Positions 2,462 to 55,241 of a stretch of DNA of 64,000 bases are shown piece after piece. The notes beneath the pieces are model-generated. The model was not told the origin of the DNA, ran no database searches, and was given only the letters and a program-made list of their open reading frames with translations. Source of the stretch: a virus. Location of the stretch: IMG/VR virus record IMGVR_UViG_3300021387_000700; one strand, given 5' to 3'. A program made the translations under genes and the position numbers. Position 1 is the stretch's first letter. Every line of letters starts with the position of its first letter.

Positions 2462-3748
2462 ATGGCACAAGCATTAAAATACCAATGGAATCCCGATGAG
2501 GCTATTGAAAAGCTTTATCAGAAAGGATTCATGGACGGAACTAACGTAGGTTTCCTCCAAACTCTGATTGACAACACTCTCGAAATCGAGGCCAACGCCT
2601 TCTTTTGGCAGGAGCACTTCACTGTCGAGGGTAACGAGTACAAGATTGACCTGCAAGACACCAAGAAGAATCCCGCTTGGACTGTTCGTCAGAAAGTCAA
2701 CCGTGTCGTGCCTATGGCCGATGCAATGGCTCCTCTGTCTGAGACCGCCCAACTCGACACCGAAGGCTGGGAGGAAAAGACTGGCTCTATCTACCAATAT
2801 GGTAAGGGCTTGTTTGACACCTCTATGTCTAAGATGGAATTGCAGGCACGTCTGCGCGAGCTGAACATTCAAGACCAAAACCTCATCACGGGCTTTGTTA
2901 AGGGTGTTGCAGACCTCGTTAAGACCCACAACTTCCGCGCCTCTTACATGGCCGCACAGACCCTTTCCTATGGTGGTGCTTATTCTAACACCAATACCAT
3001 TGCATTCAAGGGTACTACTGGCTCTATCACATCGACAAAGGGATTCAGCGGCGTTTCTACAATGCAGCAGTCCTACATTCCTATCGAGAACTTCAAGAAG
3101 GCTGGCACTAAGGTTTGGTCTGCAAACGACTGCGATATTCCTTCGCAGATGCAAAAGATTGAGCACGACTTCAAGGTTGCCAAGGGTCTTTCTGACGACT
3201 TCGCTATGGAGTGGGACATCCCGTACAGCATCGTTACCTCTATCTTGATTAACAACAGCTATTTCAAGGCCGAGGTCAATCGCTGGATTCGTCTGTATGC
3301 GCCCGACAAGGTTATCGTTGTAACCAGCGGTGCAAGCGGCATCGACGCCGATACTATCACTTGGGAGCAGCTGGTGGCCTACAGCCGCAGCACCATCTCT
3401 AAGATTGCTCCTATCCGTGTCGTTAAGCAGCAAAGCAAGGTGCAGGATTTCACAACCGTTACCGACGTAAGCGGCTGGAAGCCCAATACCGTTGTTCTGC
3501 GTCCGCTCGGCATGGCAGGTGTACTCGTTCACGCAGAGACTGCCGACGTTGCGCTGATGCGTAGCGGTGAGGTGAATAGCAATATTCAATTCTCGCTGGC
3601 TAAGATTCAGAACTTCTTGTATGTAATCAACAAGATTACGCCCAACGGTATGCTCAAGTCTTACCACACGGACGTTATCGGTCGTTACGCAACCGTTCTG
3701 AATGAGTCGCTGTATCACGTAGTAGTTGATATTGCAACCGCAGACTAA
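2462..3748 (+). CDS. putative major capsid protein
   Basis: 428 aa, placed after the scaffold and before the head-tail connector genes. The call rests on size and position only. Confidence 0.6.
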   Translation: MAQALKYQWNPDEAIEKLYQKGFMDGTNVGFLQTLIDNTLEIEANAFFWQEHFTVEGNEYKIDLQDTKKNPAWTVRQKVNRVVPMADAMAPLSETAQLDTEGWEEKTGSIYQYGKGLFDTSMSKMELQARLRELNIQDQNLITGFVKGVADLVKTHNFRASYMAAQTLSYGGAYSNTNTIAFKGTTGSITSTKGFSGVSTMQQSYIPIENFKKAGTKVWSANDCDIPSQMQKIEHDFKVAKGLSDDFAMEWDIPYSIVTSILINNSYFKAEVNRWIRLYAPDKVIVVTSGASGIDADTITWEQLVAYSRSTISKIAPIRVVKQQSKVQDFTTVTDVSGWKPNTVVLRPLGMAGVLVHAETADVALMRSGEVNSNIQFSLAKIQNFLYVINKITPNGMLKSYHTDVIGRYATVLNESLYHVVVDIATAD

Positions 3749-6093: not shown

Positions 6094-6227
6094 TCCAAGC
6101 ATGGCAATTCTAACGTTTTCGTGAACGTGAGGGGTGCGTTGTTGGGGTGTCCCCGATGATGCGCCCCTTTGCTTTACGAAATGCCGTTAGAATCAAAATA
6201 AACTACGTTCACGAAAAAAGTTATATT

Positions 6228-6842
6228 ATGGCAAAGGAAAACGAGAACAAGCAGGTAGCGCAGGAGCAAGAGGAGATAAAGGATTTTCCAATTGACATCC
6301 AAAAAAACATCGTTGAGATAATCAATGATACGCCATCCTTGATACGCCTTGGTGATAAGGAGTATAAGGTAAAGGGTATGCGCTATTATTCGTTGTACCG
6401 TATATGCAACCTTGTATTAGATATGCGTAAGGCTGATGAAACGTTAGATACTGACCAAAAGGTTATAACTGCCTTGTGTACCGATTTGGATGCCATGTGT
6501 GAAATCATGGCCATTGTGCTTTGCAATCACCTTTTCACTCCCGACGGGAACAATCTTACTTGGGAGGAGGTTCGCACAAAGAACGACTACTATGTAAGCG
6601 TTATGAAGGCAAAGGTCATGCAGAGCACATTTGATGCAAACCAATGGGCGGCAATTGTGCTGGGCGCAATAAAATCAATAGATTTATCCGCTTTTTTTTT
6701 ACTCAAAAAATCGGTGAGTACGCTTACGGGTTCACTTCTGATGCGGAAGAAGAAATCGGAGGAGACAGCATCACTATTTATGGAAGCACTATCATTGCAG
6801 ATGCAGCAGACTTCCTCAGAGCCTTCCCACAATACCGATTAG
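6228..6842 (+). CDS. tail assembly chaperone (G-like, zero-frame product)
   Basis: Canonical position between major tail and tape measure. I prefer ATG 6228 (MAKENENK...) over the GTG at 6147 given in the track. Confidence 0.65.
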   Translation: MAKENENKQVAQEQEEIKDFPIDIQKNIVEIINDTPSLIRLGDKEYKVKGMRYYSLYRICNLVLDMRKADETLDTDQKVITALCTDLDAMCEIMAIVLCNHLFTPDGNNLTWEEVRTKNDYYVSVMKAKVMQSTFDANQWAAIVLGAIKSIDLSAFFLLKKSVSTLTGSLLMRKKKSEETASLFMEALSLQMQQTSSEPSHNTD

Positions 6843-7078
6843 ATGATTACCTCTATCGGTTAAGCATCGCGCAAGTGCAGTTTATGGCTGTTGACAATAC
6901 GCACACGAAATACTTACGTGGTACGGACAAAAAAGCTTGGCAAAACTTTAAGGATGCATACGAGGCACAGAAGAAACTCGAACGGTTCTTTAATTCTATC
7001 GGTGCGCCTAAAAACCTTGCTGCTGGAGAGGAGATGGAAATCCCCATGCCGCAGCGAAACAAGAAAAAGAAAGAATAG
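6228..7078 (+). CDS. tail assembly chaperone frameshift fusion (GT-like product)
   Basis: Frame 0 (6228-~6700) is joined by a -1 slip to the overlapping ORF 6644..7078, which ends 30 nt before the tape measure start. Confidence 0.55.
6692..6701 (+). promoter_or_regulatory. -1 programmed frameshift slippery site (T9 then A; T_TTT_TTA)
   Basis: The zero frame reads GCT TTT TTT TTA CTC (AFFLL). The -1 frame is open from 6644 to 7078 and reads ...RFFFTQKIGE... Confidence 0.6.
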
Positions 7079-7107: not shown

Positions 7108-10100
7108 ATGGCAGCAAATGATGATGTTCTGATTGTTGGTAAGCTTGATTCCAAAGAATTAGAAAAGTCGATTAACGATTTGATAGATTTCGTTGGTGAT
7201 AAGACTACTATAATGGCTGGTAAGTTTGATTCCGCAATGGATAAGATGAAATCGGCCATGAAGGATTTCGCTATTACGCAGAAAGTTTCCGTCGATTTGA
7301 TGAAGGAGGCTTGGAAGGATATGTCCGCGTCGTTTGATGCTATGGTAGCAGCTCAATCGGGTGCTACTGGTGGCGGCAAAGGTAAAGAGCCAAGGGAATA
7401 TGCGCCAAATACCATCGGTGCATTGGAGCAGGAAATTGAGAAACGCCAGCAAAACCGAAAGGAGATGGAGCTTGACAGCGACGCATTACGCCAAGAAAAC
7501 AAGCTCATCGAAGAGCGAAACAAAAAGCTGGCCGAGCAAAAGGGCTTGAATACTATGGCGGCGCAGGCTAAGAAAGCAGGCGAGGAAATCCGTGTAGCGT
7601 TCTCGCATCCCGCAAACAGCCTTGAGCAAGCCGAGGCAAAGCTCGCAAAGCTAAAGGCACTTGCTGCCAATTGGAAAGGTAAGGGCGTTTTGAATGAAAC
7701 GCAATGGAATAAGATTCAAAATGCCATTGATAGAACAGAAAAGTCTATCGAAAAGTTCAAGATGTCCGCAATGACATTAAAGGACTTAAAGCTCTTGCCC
7801 GAAAAATCAGTCGACGATATTACCAAGAAGCTGCAAGCTTTAAAGCATATTCAGATAGACCCGAAAAACGCCACGCAAGTCAAAAAGCTTGGCGACGAAT
7901 ACCAGCGTCTTTCCCGTATGCAGAATGAGCTTTTAGGCCGCAGCATACAGCTCACCAAATCCAACAACTATCTCGCGCAAAGTTTTGGTTATATCCGTAA
8001 CCGTATCGTTTATGCGCTTACGCTTGGTGCTGCGACATCGTTTGTTAAGCAAGTGTACGACATCCGTGCGCAATATGAACTGCTGGAGCGTTCCTTGGGC
8101 GTTCTGATAGGTTCTTTTGAACGTGGTAGCCGTATATTCCAAGAGCTGAACACAATGGCCTTGAAATCGCCGTTTACGCTTATGGAGTTGGGCACTGCCG
8201 CAAAGCAATTAACGGCATACAATTTCCAAGCAAACGAGGTTGTGAACACCACACGCCGTTTAGCAGACCTTTCCGCAGCTTTGGGCGTGCCTATGGAGCG
8301 TCTCACATACAACTTAGGTCAGATTCGCGCACAGACGGTACTTACAGCCCGTGATGCCCGCGACTTCGCAAATGCTGGTTTGCCTATCGTGAAATCGCTG
8401 GCAGACCATTTCTCTGAGCTTGAGGGGCGTGTCGTTTCTACGGGTGATGTCTACGACCGCATGAGTAAGAAGGCCGTGTCGTATAACGATGTTATGGCCG
8501 TGCTTAACAAAATGACAGACGAGGGCGGTAAGTTCTTTGATTTCCAAGCAAAGCAGGCAGAAACCCTTCGCGTGCAGTTAGCAAACCTTACATTGGCATG
8601 GAACAATATGCTTAATGCCGTTGGTAAGGAAAACCAAGGTATGCTCACATTGCCTATCACGGCTCTTAAATCGCTTTTCCAAAATTGGAAGGAACTTAGC
8701 CATGTAATAACCGAGGTCATTATTGCCCTTGGTCTTTACAAAGGCACACAACTCGTCGTAAACAAGCTCGTTGGCGAGAGTGCTATGGTGATGCGAAAGA
8801 GCATCCTTATGGATAAGGAAAAGGCCGCATCTGAACTGCAAAGAGAGGGTACAGTCCGCCGCTTGCTGGTAAGCGAGCAAAAACAGATAGCAAACAAAAA
8901 GAAAGTTGTCGCCGCCGATTACCAAGCCATCCTTTCAACACGCGAGCTTTCAAAGACGCAGGCTTTGTTGCTTGCTGCTTTTAACAAGAACGACAAGGAA
9001 TTGATGAAAGCCCTTGTTAAGCTAAAGCTGTTGAAGAAGTCCGAGATAGAGAATATCACCGTCGGAAAGGCTTTCTCGCTCGTTATCAAGCAGATGGGTA
9101 TTTCGCTTATGAGCCTTGGTAAGACTATCGCGATGTTCCTGCCGCAAATGGCGGCTATGGCCGCTATCGGTGCTATCGTTGAGGCCGTTTACACATTCTC
9201 CGAGATTAGCGATAAGATACGCGACATCAATAAGAGTATTGTGGATAGCGCAAAGGAAAGTGCCGATTCAATTGCACAATTCATGAAGGATTACAGCGAG
9301 ACCTATAAAAAGGTCTTTGAGTATCAAGAAAAGGTGCAAAAGAACGGTGTTCCTGCCACAAAGGACGGTATTCCACAATACAAGAATCTGAATGACGCAG
9401 AGGCGTTAAAGGCATGGGACGCAATCCGTGAGCAGATTGAGCTTTCAAGTGCTGCAAGCGGTGTGTTCATCGACAAGCTGATGCAGATAAATGACGTTAA
9501 TGACCGTGTTCGTGCTGGATTCGACTATCTCCAGCAGATTCACGATATTAACGGTGCGCTGGAGTCGCTTGACGATAAGGCCGTTACCATCAATGGCGAC
9601 TGGTCTAAGTGGTGGAACTTATGGTCTTTGCCCGATGGCCTTATTGACAACCTCAAGGATTATTCAGAACAGCTTGATAAGGTTATAGAGAAATGGGGTA
9701 GCCTTGCTAATGCAAAGGAAGCAGCCATGCGAAAGCAAGAGGGCGCAGAAGGCGATTTACACGATGTTCAAGCGCAGTTCAACACGTTCTCAAACGACCT
9801 CAAGGACACCATATCGTCAATGTTTAACGCATTTTCTTCCGTTGGTATCAATACGGCGGAGGGTATGCGAGAGGCATTTGAACGTTCCAATAATCAGATT
9901 CTTGCAGATGCCAACCTTTCTTCAAAGGAACAGCTTCAGTACCGCATGGCAGCGGAGGAGGAGTTTATCGCACAGCGCAAAGCCCAATTCAAAGAGGAAT
10001 ATGATTTTGAAATCGAGCAGGGCAATGCCGCACGCGCCGCACGGGTAAAGCAAGAAGAGGAGGCATGGCTTGCATCCTTTGGCAGCGGTAAGGCCGTTTC

Positions 10101-13100
10101 GCAGGCTTTCTTTGACTGGCTTAAAAACCAGCACGCAAGCGAAATCAACTCCATGTTTGGCAAAATGTCGCGCAGGGAGATTGAGCAGATAGATTGGTCA
10201 CAACCGAAATGGCAAAAGTGGGCGCAGGATAATGCCGAGTCGTTCAGCAAGCAGTACGGAATATCTTTCGATAAGCTGAAAGGGCTTGTTGCCGATGCTA
10301 ACACATGGAAGATTTTCCTCAAGCTTACCATCACCACCGACGAAAAGAGTGTTTATGATACACTTAAAGATGCAGATGCCGCAGCTAATGCCGCATGGAC
10401 TAAGATTCAGCGGTTAAAGCAACGCCAAGCCGAACTTAACAAGATTCCAGCCACATCGCTTACAGACGAGCAAAACGAAGAGGCAAAGAATCTTTTTACC
10501 GAGCTTACGCAGGCACAGAACGACTATAACGATGCTGTGGCAAAAGGCGGTCACGCCAGCAAGCAGGCAAAGGCCAACGCAAAAGCACAGAAAACAGCCG
10601 AGCAGGAGGTTAATGAGGCTTTACGTCAAGAGCTTTCTATCATCCGTGAGGTTCAAAGCAACTACGATAAGCTCCGCAAATCGGGTGTTGATGATATGCA
10701 GGCCGCACAATTGGCCGCACAAGGCTATGCGGACACATTAAGCCGCGTAAACAATATTCTTGCGAAATACGGCATAAGCAAGTTCAATGCAAAGGATTTC
10801 GCGGGAAAGGACACCCGTGCCATTCTTGAAACCCTGCAAAAGCAGCGCAATGACCTTATAGCAAGCGGGAAAGTTAAGGCCGCAGGCTTGAAGGACATGG
10901 ACGTCGAGATTCAAAAGCTTACCATCGATGCAAAGACCTACGATTACAAAAAGATTACAGATGGCCTTAATTCCGAGCTTGGTAAAATCAAGGACGAGTA
11001 CGAGCTGGCTGTTGAATTAGATGCCAACCCCGAACTTGGTGATATGTTTGCGGATATGTTCAGCATTGATACATCGTCACTGCCGCACACATTTGAGCAG
11101 GCACTTGCAATGATTCAATCTTCTGTCGATAATGCGTTAAGCAAGCTTGGCATTGAGCGTTCGTTTGATATTCTGAAAGGGGATATAAACGCCTTTGCGA
11201 AGTCGGTAAAACAGTCGATGGATGGCGATGCCATAAAAGAGCTGGAGAAGGCGCAAAATTATATTCGTGGTATTTGGAAAAAGAACGCAGAAGAGACCAT
11301 TAAAGACTGGAACTCCCTGCTTGAGAAGTACGGCGATTATCAAACAAAACTTATAAAGGCCGCACAAGATACTGCACAAGAGCAGCTTAATATTGTGCGA
11401 AAGTTTGGTGACGATTCCGAGCAGGCCGAGGCTTTGGATTTGTCTAAAAAGATAACTCTTACCACAGACCAAGACGAAGTCGCACGTATTCAAAAGCAGC
11501 TTTACGAACTTGTAAACAAGGTCGTTAAAGGCAAAGATGTTGGGATTAAGTTGGCGGCAAGTGTAGAGCAGGGCGATATAAAAACCAAAGCAAAAATTGA
11601 ATGGGATAACTTTAAGGATAGCGACTACTATACCATGATGTTTGAAGACATGGATAGGGTTTCTACCCGTGCAATTCGCTCTATTCTTGCGCAGCTTGAT
11701 TTGCTCAAGGAAAAAGTCAAAGACGACCCTGCAAGCATGAAGGCTCTTATGGATGCGTACAAGAAAGGCCGCGACGAGCTGGAAAGCCGTGCTCCGTTTG
11801 AGAATATCATAGAAAGCATAAAAGAGTGGCATCAAGCATCCGTCGAGGCAGCTGGTGCTAACAGAGAACTTGCTGACGCTAACAGAGAACTCGAAAGCGC
11901 ACAAGCCGAATTGAATAATGCTCAAAGCGCAGCCAATAATCCAAACGCAAGATTTGGTAACGAGGCTGAAAAAACAGAACGCCTTGCAAAAGCACAAGAG
12001 CGTTACACAAAGGCTGTCAAGAGCAAAAACCAAGCGGAGCAAAATGTTGCGCAGGCCGAAATAAAGCAGATAAACGCTCAAACAAAGTTCCAAAACGCCT
12101 TGAACGGTTCGGCAACAGCACTTCAAAACGTTGGTAATTTGCTGACGCAATTTGCAGAGCTGCTTGGTATCGCCGAGGATAGCGAGGCGGGTGAAATGGT
12201 CAAGTCGCTTGCACAAGGGTTTACCATGATGGCTACTGCTTTATCATTGGTAGCTACCGTAGCAGCAATAGCCGAAATGTCGCTTGGATGGGTCGCCGCT
12301 GTTGCAGCTGCACTTACGGTTGTTATAAGCCTCGTTTCTTTCCTTGCTGGCCAAAGCAATAGAAAGATTACAGAACAAATTGAAGAAATCGAGCGAGATG
12401 TACACGACCTTGAAATTGCGTATAAGAATTTGGAGCAAGCTGCCGACGAAGCCTATGGTGCTATGACAAGTGGCGCAAAGGCCGCTTTGCTTGCAAACAA
12501 GCAGGCTCAGTTGGAAGATTTGGAAAGACAGCTTGAGCTTGCAAAATCTCGAACGGGCAAGCATTACGACCAAGATGAAGTAGACAACTACCAAAGCGAA
12601 ATCGTAGACCTCCGTAATGAAATACGAGACCTCACGCATGAAATAACAAATGACTTGCTTGATATTTCAAGTGCTGGCGATGGCATAACAGACCTTGTTG
12701 ATGCAATGATTGAGGCTTTCAAAAACGGCGAGGATGCTATGGCCGCTTTTGGAGATAAGTGGGACGAGATGATTGATAATATGATTCTCAAAATGCTCAT
12801 ATCCACATTCATGCAAAAGGCTTGGGATAACGTTATGAAAACACTTGAAGAAAAAGAGGACGAGTTCCTACAAAGGGCAAGTGCAGACCGTGCCGAGGCG
12901 CAAAAGAATTACGACAAGGCATTCGATATGTCGGATGATGAGATAGCACAGATGATTGCCGAACAACTTGGCTATCATGATGAGGTGAGCATGAAAAGGA
13001 ACGATTTGGAGGATTTGGTCAAGAGAGGCAGTCTTGGTGTTGGCGGCATTGGCATGACCTCATACAATAGCACTCCATACTTCTTTGTCAAGGCTTGGCA

Positions 13101-13599
13101 GCAAGTCACAGACGAGGAAATCGCAGCATACCGCAAGATGCTAAAGGATGCTGTTGATAGCTCTATGTCCGCAACAGACCAAGCATCTGTAGACTTTACA
13201 AAATGGGCTTTGGATTATATGAACGGCGAAGGCCGTGATTATATGACGAATTACGCCGAAATGCTTAAAGCAGCACTTGGCGATTGGTATAGCTACGGCC
13301 AAGACGCGCAAGCAAGCTTATCCGCATTACAGCAGGGTATTCAAGGCATTAGCGAAGATACAGCAGGAGCTTTGGAGGCTTACATGAATAGCATTTCGCA
13401 GCAAGTCTACTTGCATAGCGAGCTTCTTACACAGCTACGTGACGCACTTGTTAATTTTGACCTTGACGTGCAGGTTGCAACGATGTCGCAGATGCTCTTG
13501 CAGTTGCAGCAAAGCTATCAAGTGCAATTGGCTATACAGAATATTCTTAACGGATGGTCTAATCCTTCGGGTATGGCCGTTCGTGTTGAAATGGTTTAA
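7108..13599 (+). CDS. tail length tape measure protein
   Basis: 2163 aa, largely coiled-coil. It has a hydrophobic hairpin MMATALSLVATVAAIAEMSLGWVAAVAAALTVVISLVSFLAG and follows the chaperone pair. Confidence 0.9.
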   Translation: MAANDDVLIVGKLDSKELEKSINDLIDFVGDKTTIMAGKFDSAMDKMKSAMKDFAITQKVSVDLMKEAWKDMSASFDAMVAAQSGATGGGKGKEPREYAPNTIGALEQEIEKRQQNRKEMELDSDALRQENKLIEERNKKLAEQKGLNTMAAQAKKAGEEIRVAFSHPANSLEQAEAKLAKLKALAANWKGKGVLNETQWNKIQNAIDRTEKSIEKFKMSAMTLKDLKLLPEKSVDDITKKLQALKHIQIDPKNATQVKKLGDEYQRLSRMQNELLGRSIQLTKSNNYLAQSFGYIRNRIVYALTLGAATSFVKQVYDIRAQYELLERSLGVLIGSFERGSRIFQELNTMALKSPFTLMELGTAAKQLTAYNFQANEVVNTTRRLADLSAALGVPMERLTYNLGQIRAQTVLTARDARDFANAGLPIVKSLADHFSELEGRVVSTGDVYDRMSKKAVSYNDVMAVLNKMTDEGGKFFDFQAKQAETLRVQLANLTLAWNNMLNAVGKENQGMLTLPITALKSLFQNWKELSHVITEVIIALGLYKGTQLVVNKLVGESAMVMRKSILMDKEKAASELQREGTVRRLLVSEQKQIANKKKVVAADYQAILSTRELSKTQALLLAAFNKNDKELMKALVKLKLLKKSEIENITVGKAFSLVIKQMGISLMSLGKTIAMFLPQMAAMAAIGAIVEAVYTFSEISDKIRDINKSIVDSAKESADSIAQFMKDYSETYKKVFEYQEKVQKNGVPATKDGIPQYKNLNDAEALKAWDAIREQIELSSAASGVFIDKLMQINDVNDRVRAGFDYLQQIHDINGALESLDDKAVTINGDWSKWWNLWSLPDGLIDNLKDYSEQLDKVIEKWGSLANAKEAAMRKQEGAEGDLHDVQAQFNTFSNDLKDTISSMFNAFSSVGINTAEGMREAFERSNNQILADANLSSKEQLQYRMAAEEEFIAQRKAQFKEEYDFEIEQGNAARAARVKQEEEAWLASFGSGKAVSQAFFDWLKNQHASEINSMFGKMSRREIEQIDWSQPKWQKWAQDNAESFSKQYGISFDKLKGLVADANTWKIFLKLTITTDEKSVYDTLKDADAAANAAWTKIQRLKQRQAELNKIPATSLTDEQNEEAKNLFTELTQAQNDYNDAVAKGGHASKQAKANAKAQKTAEQEVNEALRQELSIIREVQSNYDKLRKSGVDDMQAAQLAAQGYADTLSRVNNILAKYGISKFNAKDFAGKDTRAILETLQKQRNDLIASGKVKAAGLKDMDVEIQKLTIDAKTYDYKKITDGLNSELGKIKDEYELAVELDANPELGDMFADMFSIDTSSLPHTFEQALAMIQSSVDNALSKLGIERSFDILKGDINAFAKSVKQSMDGDAIKELEKAQNYIRGIWKKNAEETIKDWNSLLEKYGDYQTKLIKAAQDTAQEQLNIVRKFGDDSEQAEALDLSKKITLTTDQDEVARIQKQLYELVNKVVKGKDVGIKLAASVEQGDIKTKAKIEWDNFKDSDYYTMMFEDMDRVSTRAIRSILAQLDLLKEKVKDDPASMKALMDAYKKGRDELESRAPFENIIESIKEWHQASVEAAGANRELADANRELESAQAELNNAQSAANNPNARFGNEAEKTERLAKAQERYTKAVKSKNQAEQNVAQAEIKQINAQTKFQNALNGSATALQNVGNLLTQFAELLGIAEDSEAGEMVKSLAQGFTMMATALSLVATVAAIAEMSLGWVAAVAAALTVVISLVSFLAGQSNRKITEQIEEIERDVHDLEIAYKNLEQAADEAYGAMTSGAKAALLANKQAQLEDLERQLELAKSRTGKHYDQDEVDNYQSEIVDLRNEIRDLTHEITNDLLDISSAGDGITDLVDAMIEAFKNGEDAMAAFGDKWDEMIDNMILKMLISTFMQKAWDNVMKTLEEKEDEFLQRASADRAEAQKNYDKAFDMSDDEIAQMIAEQLGYHDEVSMKRNDLEDLVKRGSLGVGGIGMTSYNSTPYFFVKAWQQVTDEEIAAYRKMLKDAVDSSMSATDQASVDFTKWALDYMNGEGRDYMTNYAEMLKAALGDWYSYGQDAQASLSALQQGIQGISEDTAGALEAYMNSISQQVYLHSELLTQLRDALVNFDLDVQVATMSQMLLQLQQSYQVQLAIQNILNGWSNPSGMAVRVEMV

Positions 13600-20245: not shown

Positions 20246-20950
20246 TTAATCAAAAAGGCTTGTTTGCACCACCGTTTGCCCGTTTGCCTGCCTTATCTCG
20301 CCCTTGCATATCCTATCAAAGCGTTCTACGCCCTTATTAAAGTACAAAGGCGATATTTCACAGCCCACATAATCAAAGCCCATCTGATATGCTGCAATAC
20401 GGCTGCTGGCACTACCCATCATCGGGTCAAAGATGATGTTGCCCTCCTTGGCATAGTTGCGGTAAATCCAGCCGTAAAGCTCTACGGGCTTCTGCGTAGC
20501 ATGGAAACGCTTATCATCGTGCTTGCTAAGTTGGCTGAACTCCACTATCTTTGCATTTCCTTGAAAGCTCGTCCACGCATACTCGCACATGGCCATAGAG
20601 AAATTTTCTGGAATCTGCTTTTTCCATATTAAGAAACAGCGAGTGGCAGGCATACCGTCGAAATAGTTAGCACCCCAAATAATCTGATTCTTGCTCACGC
20701 GGAAAAGCTCCTCGAAGAAATCATCATCGGGTGCTTTATCCCATTCATCAATGTCAATGGGATTACCGTCCACTTGGCGATAGCGGTTGAAACGGCCTTT
20801 GTGGAATCGGCCACCCTTGATGAAAGCCTCGCTGCCGCCATGTCCGTAAGGCGGGTCGGCTACGGCCAAATCAAAATAATCATCGGGCAGCGTTTTCATA
20901 TATTCCACGCAATCCATATTGAATACATCGCTCCTAAGTTCTTTTTCCAT
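20246..20950 (-). CDS. DNA methyltransferase (N6-adenine/N4-cytosine, ParB-less PF01555-like)
   Basis: 234 aa. Motif IV is VADPPYG, followed by HATQKPVELYGWI and motif I-like IIFDPMMGSASS. Confidence 0.8.
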   Translation of the reverse strand: MEKELRSDVFNMDCVEYMKTLPDDYFDLAVADPPYGHGGSEAFIKGGRFHKGRFNRYRQVDGNPIDIDEWDKAPDDDFFEELFRVSKNQIIWGANYFDGMPATRCFLIWKKQIPENFSMAMCEYAWTSFQGNAKIVEFSQLSKHDDKRFHATQKPVELYGWIYRNYAKEGNIIFDPMMGSASSRIAAYQMGFDYVGCEISPLYFNKGVERFDRICKGEIRQANGQTVVQTSLFD

Positions 20951-20953
20951 ATA

Positions 20954-21650
20954 CTAAAAATCTAATGTAAGTTGACTTTGTTCAATTCTTATTCTCTTCT
21001 TCGTCAGTTCATAATAATGCTCGTCAAGCTCAAAGCCGATAAACGAGCATTTCTGCTGTATCGCCGCGATAAGCGTCGTGCCGCTGCCGCAGGTGCAGTC
21101 CATGACTGTGAATTTACCCCCCCCCCATTTTCGTCGCGTCAAAAATTAGACGTCGTAACAAGTTGACGGGCTTTTCATTGGGATGCACCATCTTGTCGGC
21201 GGACACGCGGGGAACGGATATAATATCTACGGGGCGTTTCCCTTGAAACCTAAAATCCTTCATCGGCGCGAACACGATGCTTTCGTATCTGCTGCCGTAT
21301 GCCGATTCAAGGTCGCCCATAGAGTGATTGCCCTTATCCCATATAAGCACGTTCTTTACGCGCATACCGTTTGCCTGCAATTCATCTATAACGGGCTGCT
21401 GAACGTCCCACCGTGTGAACAGATAAACAGCACCCGTATCTTTCATAACCCTCGGCAGGTACTTGATGAAATCGACAAACGGCCTTTTGTCGTTGGCAAT
21501 CTTTTCAAAGTGCTTTTGTTTTCCGTTCCAAGAGGACTGATAATCTATGCCGTATGGCAAATCCGTGATGCACACATCAATGCTCTTGTCGGGTACTTGC
21601 TGGATAAGCTCCAAGCAGTCGCCGTGATATACGTTATTGAACTCCAGCAT
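20954..21650 (-). pseudogene. second DNA methyltransferase, split by a G10 tract (frameshifted; possibly phase-variable)
   Basis: ORF 21650->21114 carries ITDLPYG and HPNEKPVNLLRRLIF and ends ...DATKMGGG* inside the G-run. ORF 21142->20954 reads ...WGGGKFTVMDCTCGSGTTLIAA, the missing SAM motif I. With 9 or 12 G the two halves fuse in frame. Confidence 0.75.
21117..21126. repeat. homopolymer C10 (G10 on coding strand) inside the methyltransferase
   Basis: Counted directly as ...aatttaCCCCCCCCCCattttcg... It is the longest homopolymer I found in the window. Confidence 0.9.
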
Positions 21651-21653
21651 ATA

Positions 21654-22427
21654 CTATCCCAATTTATCGCCACAGCACCAAAGCATGTCGCCACTTTCCA
21701 AGAACTTTATGCAATGCGCATCCGACTGAGCCAGCATCGGAATATCTTCGTAGACAACATCTTCTGTTGACGTCGTTTGCTTGATGCGCTTATACGTAAA
21801 CGTTACCTGCGGGCGGTCAAACAATCCGTTTCCAAGCAGCCTTGCAACGGTGTTGTACGGCTCGCGCTTTGCCGTTACGCCCATAACCTCCACATCGGGT
21901 CGGTTATAGAACGACAAGCCGTGACAGATGCCAGCAACGATAACGCCGCTTTCATCATATACCACAATGCGTTTTATATCCTGCGGCACTAAGAAACATT
22001 GGTGCATGACCGTTTCAACGGCACAGCGGGCAGCAAAGCCCATCGGTAGCATGATACGGTTGCTATCCATGTCCGCATATTCCCTTGCACGGGCGTTAAT
22101 AACGTTATTGTAGCCGTTTGCCACTTGATGATAGTGCAGATTCTTGTTTAGCACGGCCATTGCGCCCATCATAGGCGTTTCATCGCCGTTAGGGGTGAAT
22201 ATGTCACACTTAAACCCGAAATCCGCACAGCCCTGCGCCACAAGTGCCAAATCAACATCATTGCGTCCGCAGGCATAGGTAACCTCGGTATAGCCAGCAT
22301 CATCAACGCGGTTTAGCAAGGAGTAAACCATACGGCCTCTTGTGCCGCATACGCCACCTTTGGCGAACTTGTAGTCCTCCTTGATGTATATGCTGTTATG
22401 GCCGTATATAGGCATTAGTCTATCCAT
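21654..22427 (-). CDS. hypothetical protein with weak resemblance to ACC-deaminase/D-Cys desulfhydrase (fold-type II PLP) N-terminus
   Basis: 257 aa. IYIKEDYKFAKGGVCGTRGRMVYSLL resembles IYIKRDD...GGNKxRKLE, but the PLP lysine is not evident. Confidence 0.25.
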   Translation of the reverse strand: MDRLMPIYGHNSIYIKEDYKFAKGGVCGTRGRMVYSLLNRVDDAGYTEVTYACGRNDVDLALVAQGCADFGFKCDIFTPNGDETPMMGAMAVLNKNLHYHQVANGYNNVINARAREYADMDSNRIMLPMGFAARCAVETVMHQCFLVPQDIKRIVVYDESGVIVAGICHGLSFYNRPDVEVMGVTAKREPYNTVARLLGNGLFDRPQVTFTYKRIKQTTSTEDVVYEDIPMLAQSDAHCIKFLESGDMLWCCGDKLG

Positions 22428-29254: not shown

Positions 29255-30082
29255 ATGCAGTACATATTTAACTATTTTGCAAACATCAAGCAGTTAGATG
29301 CTTATTTGAATAGTACACAGCCGCAGCAGGCTTTTAAGCCTTATATGGCCAGTATTGCAACCGACCGCAGCCACATAAAAAACGCTAAAACAAAAGATTT
29401 TGCCGAGGCAAATGATTTGTTAATGTACGGCGATAAAAAGACCGCTAAAAAGATAGATGACGCAGGGCTTGCAAAGGTACGCTGTGAAATCGCAAAAGAT
29501 ATGATACACAGACAGCCCTATTCATCGGTCGTAGGTTTTGCCGCAAATGTACCCGCTTATTTGGCAGGCTCGCCGAATAGTATGATAAACATCAAGCAAA
29601 ACAAAACAAAGGAAAAGGTCGTAAATATTGCCTATTCGGTGACAACAAGTTGGTCGACCGCCCCTAATGATATTATAAGCGCAGCCACTAATTTATTAAG
29701 TGCAATTTGCAAGATTGAGGCAGGCGGTATTCGTATTAACCTTTTCTCCTGCTGGTGCATTAAAAATAATAGCGGTACGCAGTTAGTCGGTTTTGCCACA
29801 AAGGTGAAGGATAGCAAAGAAAAGATAGATACATTAAAGGTGGCCTATCCCCTTTGCAATCCAAGTATGCAGCGCAGGCACGCCTTTAAATGGACTGAAA
29901 ATACCGAAGGGCTCGACCCATCCATCGCCAGCGGTTATGGAAATGTAGTCGGCGGCGATAAATTAAAGGAATTATTAACCGCTAACAATTGCAAATGTGA
30001 CGTAGCTTTTCAATTTAATGATATTGCGTATCGCTCGACCGACCGTATTATCCAAATGATTGAGGAACAGATGAAAAAGTAA
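29255..30082 (+). CDS. hypothetical protein, partner of the AAA+ ATPase (possibly a degenerate vWA-like fold)
   Basis: 275 aa. VVNIAYSVTTSWS sits where a vWA MIDAS DxSxS would be, but the metal ligands are absent. The link is gene order only. Confidence 0.25.
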   Translation: MQYIFNYFANIKQLDAYLNSTQPQQAFKPYMASIATDRSHIKNAKTKDFAEANDLLMYGDKKTAKKIDDAGLAKVRCEIAKDMIHRQPYSSVVGFAANVPAYLAGSPNSMINIKQNKTKEKVVNIAYSVTTSWSTAPNDIISAATNLLSAICKIEAGGIRINLFSCWCIKNNSGTQLVGFATKVKDSKEKIDTLKVAYPLCNPSMQRRHAFKWTENTEGLDPSIASGYGNVVGGDKLKELLTANNCKCDVAFQFNDIAYRSTDRIIQMIEEQMKK

Positions 30083-54627: not shown

Positions 54628-54700
54628 CGCGGGGTGGAGCAGTTGGCAGCTCGCAAGGCTCATATCCTTGAGGTCGCAGGTTCGAGTCCTGCCCACCGCA
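54628..54700 (+). tRNA. tRNA-Met-like (anticodon CAU), initiator-like, atypical acceptor stem
   Basis: CGCGGGG-TG-GAGC-AGTTGGCA-GCTC-G-CAAGG-CTCATAT-CCTTG-AGGTC-GCAGG-TTCGAGT-CCTGC-CC(A)CCGCA. The D, anticodon and T arms are perfect. The acceptor pairs only if A54695 is bulged, and C1xA72 mismatches as in bacterial initiators. Confidence 0.6.
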
Positions 54701-54738
54701 ACAAAAACTTTCTTTGGCATACTGATTAATAAACGGAT

Positions 54739-54812
54739 TGCTCCATAGCGCAATTGGTCAGAGCATCAGAATTTGGGTCTGAGGGTTGCACGTTCGAGTC
54801 GTGCTGGGGCAA
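54739..54812 (+). tRNA. tRNA-Gln (anticodon UUG)
   Basis: Acceptor is TGCTCCA/TGGGGCA with U1-A72. The anticodon arm is TCAGA-ATTTGGG-TCTGA and the T arm is GCACG-TTCGAGT-CGTGC. Confidence 0.85.
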
Positions 54813-54817
54813 CAAAT

Positions 54818-54894
54818 GGGGTTTTAGCTCAGTTGGTTAGAGCATCTGCTTTGCAAGCAGAGGGTCGTGAGTTCGAGTCTCACATTCTCCACCA
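54818..54894 (+). tRNA. tRNA-Ala (anticodon UGC), CCA encoded, two U-U mismatches in the acceptor stem
   Basis: GGGGTTT-TA-GCTC-AGTTGGTTA-GAGC-A-TCTGC-TTTGCAA-GCAGA-GGGTC-GTGAG-TTCGAGT-CTCAC-ATTCTCC-ACCA. G3:U70 is present, and pairs 5-68 and 6-67 are U-U. Confidence 0.75.
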
Positions 54895-54900
54895 TGATAC

Positions 54901-55210
54901 GGGGGTATTTTGGTTTTGATTGTAGATGGATGGTAAGAAATCGTGCAAGCAATCATGCTTTGAAATGGTAAAAACAATAAATGCTAAGGTTGTCAATATG
55001 ACTCCCCGTGCTCAAGTGCTGGCAGCAGCCGCATAAGCACCTCGCTGGTGACTTGCGAAGGAACATAAAAGTTACGGCTCGTTTTCTCCGTTTTCTCAAA
55101 ACGTAGTGGTGGAACGCTCGTCCAAGTTATAAAAGCTGGTCAGCCCCGACGCACGTAACAAGTTTCTATGATAAATCTGCAAGACGAGGGTTCGACTCCC
55201 TCTACCTCCA
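54901..55210 (+). ncRNA. ssrA: tmRNA (ssrA-like)
   Basis: The 5' GGGGGTA pairs with the 3' TACCTCC(A), including G3:U70. The T arm is GAGGG-TTCGACT-CCCTC. TTGTAGAT near the 5' end pairs with ATCTGCAA near the 3' end (P2). An internal frame ...GCT AAG GTT GTC AAT ATG ACT CCC CGT GCT CAA GTG CTG GCA GCA GCC GCA TAA ends in an Ala-rich tag. Confidence 0.8.
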
Positions 55211-55241
55211 CTTGAATATTTTATTTTTAATCATAAGAAAG

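Follow-up and report, generated by a model that had tools for sequence, protein, structure and literature searches.

A hypervariable G tract as a probable ON/OFF switch of an orphan phage DNA methyltransferase in the ruminant gut

Introduction

Orphan DNA methyltransferases (MTases) of phages are a main escape route from restriction–modification (R-M), while the marks that they set are themselves targets of methylation-dependent (type IV) nucleases; an MTase switch that is heritable, reversible and stochastic would equip a phage population with both genotypes beforehand. Experimental proof that a phage switches a DNA modification exists so far for T2 only, in which the α-glucosyltransferase gene agt carries an A9 tract within its open reading frame (ORF) that undergoes reversible ±1 slippage, with an ON/OFF trade-off between TgvAB and McrA/BC proven by experiment (Gomez, Barrick and Waters, bioRxiv 10.1101/2025.10.21.683753). 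Poly-G tracts in the methylase of phage BPP-1 were noted in 2004 (Liu et al., as cited in bioRxiv 10.1101/2025.10.21.683753). Here we analyse a 64,000-nt stretch of viral DNA, IMG/VR record IMGVR_UViG_3300021387_000700 (the whole of which is called the window below), in which a run of ten G residues (G10) splits an MTase gene at 20954..21650, a gene that had been proposed from its sequence to be phase-variable (the original prediction).

The closest known case is bpm, the adenine MTase gene of Bordetella phage BPP-1 and its variants BIP-1 and BMP-1, and the closest demonstrated mechanism is that of T2 agt. Like the gene in the window, bpm encodes a PF01555 protein and carries a homopolymer at the turn before motif I; unlike it, bpm resides in an unrelated 42-kb temperate podovirus of a proteobacterium and belongs to a distant MTase lineage. 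The bpm series comprises three laboratory variants that were never analysed further, whereas the rumen phage locus spans G7–G12 across dozens of metagenomes and shows deep conservation of the run. T2 agt is likewise a phage DNA-modification gene with a homopolymer (9 nt) in its ORF, but the tract is A9 and not G10, and the product is a glucosyltransferase acting on hydroxymethylcytosine rather than an MTase dependent on S-adenosylmethionine (SAM). In addition, wild-type T2 is ON with rare variants (~7e-4), whereas the consensus sequences of the rumen phage are mostly OFF.

Other systems are more remote. The genes for receptor-binding proteins of Campylobacter Fletchervirus phages contain hypermutable poly-G tracts (Sorensen et al. 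2021, Cell Rep 35:109214); these are also phage-borne in-ORF runs (G7–G11) that yield mixed progeny, but they serve host recognition instead of DNA modification, and the host genus is itself rich in poly-G contingency loci. The phase-variable MTases of bacteria, namely Type III mod, Type I hsd and the Type IIG cj0031 with its poly-G tract (e.g. PMC4889913), toggle methylation through in-ORF simple-sequence repeats and slipped-strand mispairing as well; however, they are chromosomal, usually belong to R-M systems and act via host gene expression, whereas the gene considered here is an orphan, Type II-like, beta-class phage MTase. The term phasevarion, which denotes a bacterial regulon under a switching MTase, is not the right label for the rumen phage locus. 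A prophage MTase of Bibersteinia trehalosi, M.Btr192IV (hia5-like), contains 12 × CAAG in its ORF (PMC4996451); it resembles the present gene in being a prophage-borne orphan with a coding-region simple-sequence repeat, but that repeat is a tetranucleotide near the 5′ end of an MTase of another family, and no expression was seen in the native host, its significance being left open by the authors (PMC4996451). Given that the BPP-1 tracts had been noted and that agt switching had been shown to bear on type IV restriction, the locus is less new than the original prediction implied: the mechanism is known in principle, and the documentation in natural phage populations is unusually good.

Results

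The interrupted methyltransferase gene

The gene and its parts are arranged as follows.

20954..21650, minus strand: MTase gene (beta-class, PF01555), complete, frameshifted as assembled; 697 nt with G10
21127..21650, minus strand: gene part preceding the tract, with motif IV (DLPYG, 21549-21563) and HPNEKP (21168-21185)
21117..21126, minus strand: hypermutable G10 tract, C10 when read on the plus strand; it opens with the third base of the Met175 codon and specifies the glycines of ...KMGGG...
21114..21116, minus strand: premature TAA stop, used in the G10 (and G7) frame; products of 177 and 178 amino acids are present in the protein collection
20954..21116, minus strand: gene part following the tract (KFTVMDCTCGSGTT...LTLDF and stop), intact in all alleles examined
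21074..21100, minus strand: SAM-binding motif I (DCTCGSGTT, located by PDB alignment), in frame only at G9 or G12

The minus-strand ORF begins with an ATG at 21650, extends for 178 codons and ends as ...LIFDATKMGGG at the TAA immediately 3′ of the tract (21114-21116), and the following frame carries on as KFTVMDCTCGSGTTLIAAIQQKCSFIGFELDEHYY... (KFTVMDCTCGSGTT...) until a TAG stop at 20954-20956. A G9 version of the same region would equal a 231-codon ORF plus stop. Deletion of one G yields a 231-residue protein that matches PF01555 (E=5.5e-24, 85.8 bits; cut-off 26.7) and PHROG 67, ‘DNA methyltransferase’ (3e-53), and whose PDB relatives include M.MboIIA, DpnA, CcrM and M.RsrI. The restored enzyme has a circularly permuted motif order, with motif IV N-terminal and the SAM-binding motif I C-terminal: motif IV reads DLPY (residues 30–33), in which Leu replaces the first Pro and D30 and P32 are invariant in the family alignment, HPNEKP occupies residues 156–161, and DCTCGSGTT occupies residues 184–192. 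These sequence features place the restored protein in the beta-class N6A-N4C DNA MTase family with predicted catalytic activity, DLPY alone being unable to decide between N6-adenine and N4-cytosine. The original prediction had described this ORF, the G10 tract and the continuation in the next frame, all of which check out.

Its further statement that the tract is the longest homopolymer in 64 kb is also borne out. The next longest is a T9 run (6692-6700), followed by several A7/T7 runs, and the next-longest G/C runs have a length of 6 (one G, one C). Run-length decay of ~0.12–0.18 per extra base gives, by extrapolation, an estimated ~1e-3 G/C runs of at least 10 per 64 kb. GGG is the rarest Gly codon in the phage (6.2% of Gly codons), and GGGGGG is used for only 2 of the 40 Gly-Gly pairs in the ORFs sampled.

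Tract lengths among relatives

Relatives of the locus were drawn from IMG/VR, JGI, ENA and Logan assemblies, and protein tails from a collection of 15 billion proteins; the source samples are ruminant-gut metagenomes from many studies. Retrieved related loci carry L-number labels. Among genes whose DNA is 96–100% identical apart from the run, G8, G9, G10, G11 and G12 are all present.

G8: L009, L041, L203-L212
G9: L001/L008, L002, L195-L202
G10: window, L039, L040, L185-L194
G11: L003
G12: L043, L044
Interrupted, G9-T-GG, in frame (232 amino acids): L042, about 1724-1735

The protein collection contains tails that match each length from G7 to G12, corresponding to one full-length (ON) and two truncated or out-of-frame (OFF) outcomes.

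G7: MGG and stop, 177 amino acids
G8: MGGV..., 214 amino acids
G9: MGGGK..., 231 amino acids
G10: MGGG and stop, 178 amino acids
G11: MGGGV..., 215 amino acids
G12: MGGGGK..., 232 amino acids

Both lengths that were expected to restore the frame, G9 and G12, thus occur naturally and encode intact enzymes of 231 and 232 residues. Forty-one distinct sequences of the G8 type were found together with several G10 types, individual G10 types being present on up to 13-15 contigs. ON alleles account for about one-fifth of the contigs in the subset listed, a minority that rare ±1 errors around a true G9 could not produce.

Tract length varies on closely similar backgrounds. All three frames were found in three sub-lineages, and also within accession series that apparently derive from single studies. 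L003 (G11) and L043 (G12) share 2200 flanking nucleotides without a difference, and the window is 6 substitutions away. Pairs that are 3–5 substitutions apart per 684 nt differ in tract length in about half of the cases, and beyond ~1% divergence the differing fraction levels at 75–78%, which is the level of random assortment; this comparison has qualitative value only, since retrieval by exact protein forces identical pairs to share their tract state. The G10 allele of the window is identical in an ENA scaffold and a Logan assembly. The wobble base right after the run varies (T/C; GGT/GGC), with L196 and L202 having a synonymous C in place of T after G9, and the interrupted tract of L042 may be a partly stabilised ON allele. 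The original prediction had proposed a search for varying tract length in related phages, and the outcome is positive (G7–G12); neither a uniform G9 nor a fixed G10 with secondary decay was seen among the relatives.

In the PDB alignment, the Gly run corresponds to the turn that links the HPxxKP helix to the strand running into motif I (9c3u/8urk ...CPPGG-RVLDPFMGSGTT). Relatives have turns of differing length and sequence here (TPKDG, TPPNG, RIGD, KMGGGKF), and the turn tolerates an added Gly, because 231- and 232-residue alleles both occur. A homopolymer in such a tolerant, Gly/Pro-rich turn therefore costs the enzyme little, and both poly-G (Gly) and poly-C (Pro) runs arise.

Divergence and selection

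A pure G run is kept at protein identities of 82% (L045, G8), 76% (L046-48, G7) and 64% (L049, G7), and L050, with 62% protein identity, has a G9 run at the site; the run is absent at the site in the 63% orthologue L004/L010. Each of L045, L046-48, L049 and L050 was captured at an OFF length, and the 76% cluster includes ON members and both OFF frames. In L051 (Logan SRR31077500, 1001-1621), which is 72% identical, the same turn (...STPP...) contains a C10 run that is out of frame and that C9 would restore; further PF01555 MTase genes lie on either side of this orthologue.

Correction of the tract alone gives a full-length ORF in each lineage examined, and no allele has any other frame-breaking lesion. 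The ratio of nonsynonymous to synonymous substitution rates (dN/dS) amounts to 0.05-0.16 before the tract and 0.09-0.35 after it, and these low values on both gene halves indicate that selection has acted on the full-length enzyme all along. Synonymous sites have reached or nearly reached saturation between lineages, with a proportion of synonymous differences (pS) of 0.6–0.9 and a dS of ~1.1–1.3 for the window versus L045. A gene that is needed intact, a single synonymous change that would stabilise it, and a pure run that is kept together form the classical signature of a selected contingency locus. The alternative of a pseudogene is ruled out by the restoration of ORFs through tract-only correction, by dN/dS of 0.05-0.35 and by the existence of ON alleles in nature. 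The locus is a hypervariable homopolymer in an otherwise conserved, selected MTase gene, with one productive and two non-productive frames. The candidacy of the gene as a phase-variable MTase is accordingly strengthened by lengths of G7–G12 on near-identical backgrounds and by a post-tract part that is intact and under purifying selection.

The homologous site in other phages

The 42.5-kb genome of BPP-1 (L052) contains a sole G/C run of at least 7, a G8 in bpm (29922-29929, ...VMPGGVVLDPFAGSGTT), located at the homologous turn. BIP-1 (L056) has G9 and BMP-1 (L057) has G10, with the run starting at locus position 635 and the rest of bpm identical to that of BPP-1; the gene is intact at G8, frameshifted at G9 and G10, and unannotated in the BIP-1 and BMP-1 records. 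An isolate from 2025 has G8 in bpm. We take BPP-1, BIP-1 and BMP-1 to be laboratory variants of a single phage that differ in tropism, with sequences from the Sanger era; in that case, ordinary propagation is enough for the tract to slip, and its variation is not an artefact of Illumina metagenomes.

IMG/VR was scanned for runs of at least eight G followed, within 4–16 nt, by a D-x3-G-S/T-G-S/T motif, which returned at least 120 loci (L059-L178). Among the matches listed, to which the counts of G runs below also refer, 121 of 122 represent MTase motif-I contexts; deduplication and the requirement of an upstream HPxxKP left 83 PF01555-type cases, 52 in frame and 31 out of frame.

G8: 34 in frame, 6 out of frame
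G9: 17 in frame, 15 out of frame
G10-12: 0 in frame, 10 out of frame
G13: 1 in frame, 0 out of frame

Several of these loci again form pairs that differ little except in the run: L174 (G9) and L129 (G10) have 1 mismatch in 500 nt besides it, L166 (G11) and L172 (G13) have 0 mismatches in 399 nt, and L124/L143 and L137/L150 are further pairs that are identical or nearly so. Poly-C runs at this position are less common, and the 17 C8-9 cases that IMG/VR yielded after deduplication are all in frame (G versus C at lengths 8–9, Fisher p = 0.009). Reads derive from both strands, so the uniformly in-frame C8-9 runs argue against a purely technical origin, which would be strand-symmetric. With a real out-of-frame C10 in L051 and all 17 IMG/VR C8-9 runs in frame, a role of poly-C runs as switches is weakly supported.

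Lineages with G8–G13 at this position comprise rumen siphovirus-like phages, Bordetella podoviruses and more than 100 IMG/VR contigs, with an occasional poly-C run. We tentatively entertain the possibility, at somewhat less than even confidence, that the turn preceding motif I in beta-class phage MTases is a recurrent switch point that evolved convergently in unrelated lineages.

A different site is affected in Staphylococcus phage Koomba-kaat_1 (L053, ~386-393), where a C8 run interrupts a Silviavirus MTase within motif IV and not at the turn before motif I; the context is GAC CCC CCC C TA, and one C fewer gives DPPY. Its relative vB_SauM-V1SA20 (L055) reads GA-CCTTCCTTAT (DLPY) and is intact, and many Staphylococcus phage records have this MTase in two pieces. 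The Silviavirus C8 run possibly represents another type of homopolymer switch site. Split MTases occur in both Staphylococcus and Streptococcus phage records; that of IPP69 was rejected as a homopolymer case, the break not being at a long homopolymer.

Genomic context

The switched gene lies between two further genes of the same strand.

20246..20950, minus strand: second MTase (PF01555, motif DPPY), intact, orphan; starts 4 nt past the stop of the switched gene
21654..22427, minus strand: gene resembling pyridoxal-phosphate (PLP) enzymes, 257 amino acids; weak PF00291 match, PHROG 3650 of unknown function

The second MTase has no homopolymer of 6 or more and is 25% identical to the switched enzyme; the neighbour that had been described as an intact paralogous MTase is indeed an intact PF01555 gene, but at this identity it is a distant family relative and not a recent paralogue. 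In the close relatives for which the upstream flank was retrieved, the PLP-enzyme-like gene immediately precedes the MTase pair, and it may be a partner in DNA modification. Both junctions of this three-gene array (21648-21656 and 20948-20956) read TAGTATATG, comprising a stop, 3 nt and the next start, which looks like a repeated cassette-like junction. The neighbours comprise the PLP-enzyme-like gene, the second MTase, a replication-initiator-like gene and a primase/helicase, with no cognate restriction endonuclease among them, and the switched MTase is an orphan (solitary) enzyme, not part of an R-M system. In L044, an HNH/I-HmuI-like homing endonuclease gene (2757-3099) is found 3′ of the second MTase, where the window has the replication-initiator-like gene; it is the only nuclease in a relative, and the arrangement indicates mosaicism downstream of the MTase pair. 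An apparent split of the second MTase in L190 proved to be a scaffold gap of Ns.

The window comes from a tailed phage of roughly 80–87 kb, with a 2163-residue tape measure protein, a primase/helicase, a single-stranded DNA-binding protein, a sliding clamp and three tRNAs; related contigs of 79–87 kb are probably near-complete genomes. Among GenBank phages there was no DNA match, and the best protein relative is 41% identical. The T9 run (6692-6700) is in the overlap of two plus-strand ORFs, 6147-6842 and 6644-7078, the second in the -1 frame. Both are immediately 5′ of the tape measure gene (7108-13599), and PHROGs lists the first under ‘unknown function’. This pair has the classic programmed -1 frameshift layout of tail-assembly chaperones, with T TTT TTT TTA as the likely slippery site. 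A transfer-messenger RNA gene (54901-55213, plus strand; Rfam RF00023, 67.7 bits, gathering 47, E=3e-24), for which ARAGORN gives the tag peptide AKVVNMTPRAQVLAAAA, is directly 3′ of tRNA-Met, tRNA-Gln and tRNA-Ala (54629-54894) and ends where the sliding-clamp gene begins.

Discussion

Contingency loci, as described by Moxon and colleagues and exemplified by bacterial mod, hsd and cj0031, change length via slipped-strand mispairing, and these changes are reversible. We consider it likely that the G tract is a functional slipped-strand ON/OFF switch of this kind, controlling an orphan phage MTase of predicted activity. Mispairing during phage DNA replication would add or remove Gs reversibly, with three outcomes: (i) at G9 or G12, motif IV and motif I would share one frame and give an enzyme of 231 or 232 residues (ON); (ii) at G7 or G10, the TAA straight after the run would terminate the protein at 177 or 178 residues (OFF); and (iii) at G8 or G11, a 38-residue out-of-frame tail would give 214 or 215 residues (OFF). 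A burst or lineage would then be a mix of genomes with and without one methylation mark, and with the neighbouring tract-free MTase presumably constitutive, one mark would be constitutive and one stochastic. By analogy with T2 agt, the ON state could confer protection from cognate classical R-M, and the OFF state could permit escape from methylation-dependent restriction or avoid a cost of methylation; we infer a bet-hedging benefit, for which R-M protection and type IV escape would be the most plausible form. More speculatively, the G10 stop, 165 nt upstream of the second MTase, could lower expression of that gene through lost coupling or polarity, and RNA-polymerase or ribosome slippage might supply a low level of full-length product from OFF templates. 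The evidence for reversible switching in a clonal population is indirect, consisting of the intermingling of ON with OFF alleles on shared backgrounds and of the BPP-1/BIP-1/BMP-1 series.

A neutral mutational hotspot is the serious residual rival, the hypermutability being real and the adaptive value inferred; we regard it as unlikely. On this account, chance codon use at a Gly-Gly turn produced the run, most hosts do not require the MTase and frameshifts are tolerated, with no selected bet-hedging. It would accommodate the minority of ON alleles in the listed subset, as well as the nature of the turn, which is Gly/Pro-rich in the PF01555 family such that G runs are possible by chance; moreover, in an IMG/VR survey limited to tract-bearing loci, G8 is mostly in frame and longer runs are mostly out, as simple expansion from a functional state would have it. 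However, purifying selection acts on both halves in run-bearing lineages, indicating that the intact enzyme is repeatedly needed, and although one synonymous change (GGG to the preferred GGT, GGC or GGA) would stabilise the gene, the pure run outlasts synonymous divergence that is at or close to saturation, with a single interrupted allele seen (L042). Tracts are also found at the same turn in unrelated lineages, BPP-1 included. Far less probable is a sequencing or assembly artefact, in which G9 and an intact gene are true everywhere and other lengths are miscalled. Long G runs are error-prone on several platforms, all lengths are taken from metagenome-assembly consensus, and L003 and L043, with the same flanks and one G apart, could come from two assemblies of overlapping data. 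Yet miscalls would leave G9 dominant, whereas six lengths (G7–G12) were found with G8 and G10 each at least as frequent as G9; in addition, the same G10 allele occurs in two independent assemblies, the isolate-phage records BPP-1, BIP-1 and BMP-1 show G8, G9 and G10 at the homologous site, and C8-9 runs at the same gene position are in frame in 17 of 17 cases.

Two explanations would make the interrupted form itself functional. Programmed recoding, in which the tract is a fixed slippery site and G10 yields the full-length enzyme via a ribosomal +1 shift at GGG-TAA or RNA-polymerase slippage, is a shade more doubtful than an artefact. The stop codon immediately 3′ of the run provides a context like that of known +1 sites (prfB, for example), the T9 run of this phage seems to serve as a -1 site in tail-chaperone genes, and leaky expression from OFF templates by RNA-polymerase slippage on G10 is plausible. 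Recoding sites, however, keep a fixed length and frame among relatives, whereas here all three frame relations occur, with about one-fifth of contigs in frame (listed subset), and the shift needed differs between lineages. We give almost no credence to a split enzyme, in which the 178-residue N-terminal and a separately initiated C-terminal fragment would form an active two-subunit MTase. Split MTases such as M.AquI are known, a TTG-initiated 62-residue ORF (20954-21142) and an internal ATG (21101-21103) are present, and a 49-residue PF01555 fragment is called in some contigs; but the C-terminal piece is without a conserved start or ribosome-binding context, the frame relation differs among alleles, and G8/G11 alleles run the N-terminal fragment across the C-terminal coding region.

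Several points weigh against a contingency locus. Retrieval by exact protein biases the allele counts, each tract length is an assembly consensus in which some ±1 calls could be errors, and variation is read between assemblies. ON alleles make up about one-fifth of the contigs in the subset listed, a share as compatible with selection for the enzyme that is weak or intermittent as with bet-hedging, and a Gly-Gly turn favours G runs through codon chance. The IMG/VR survey covers tract-bearing loci only, and no enrichment over all PF01555 genes is claimed. Finally, a host search of 185,579 species genomes returned no close relative, only relatives of 45-56% identity scattered over phyla.

To the experimental case of T2 agt, the rumen phage locus adds (i) a natural population record, with six tract lengths in many independent ruminant metagenomes, (ii) evolutionary evidence for maintenance of the run, and (iii) a defined structural site that BPP-1 bpm and numerous uncultivated phages have in common with it, the turn just ahead of motif I. 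This site gives annotators a rule by which to spot OFF-phase MTases, and phage methylomes obtained from bulk data may be population averages. If the turn is a convergent switch point, stochastic genome methylation would be a widespread, selected form of phage counter-defence, and many phage MTases annotated as ‘frameshifted’ or ‘split’ would be contingency genes caught in the OFF phase, not pseudogenes or errors.

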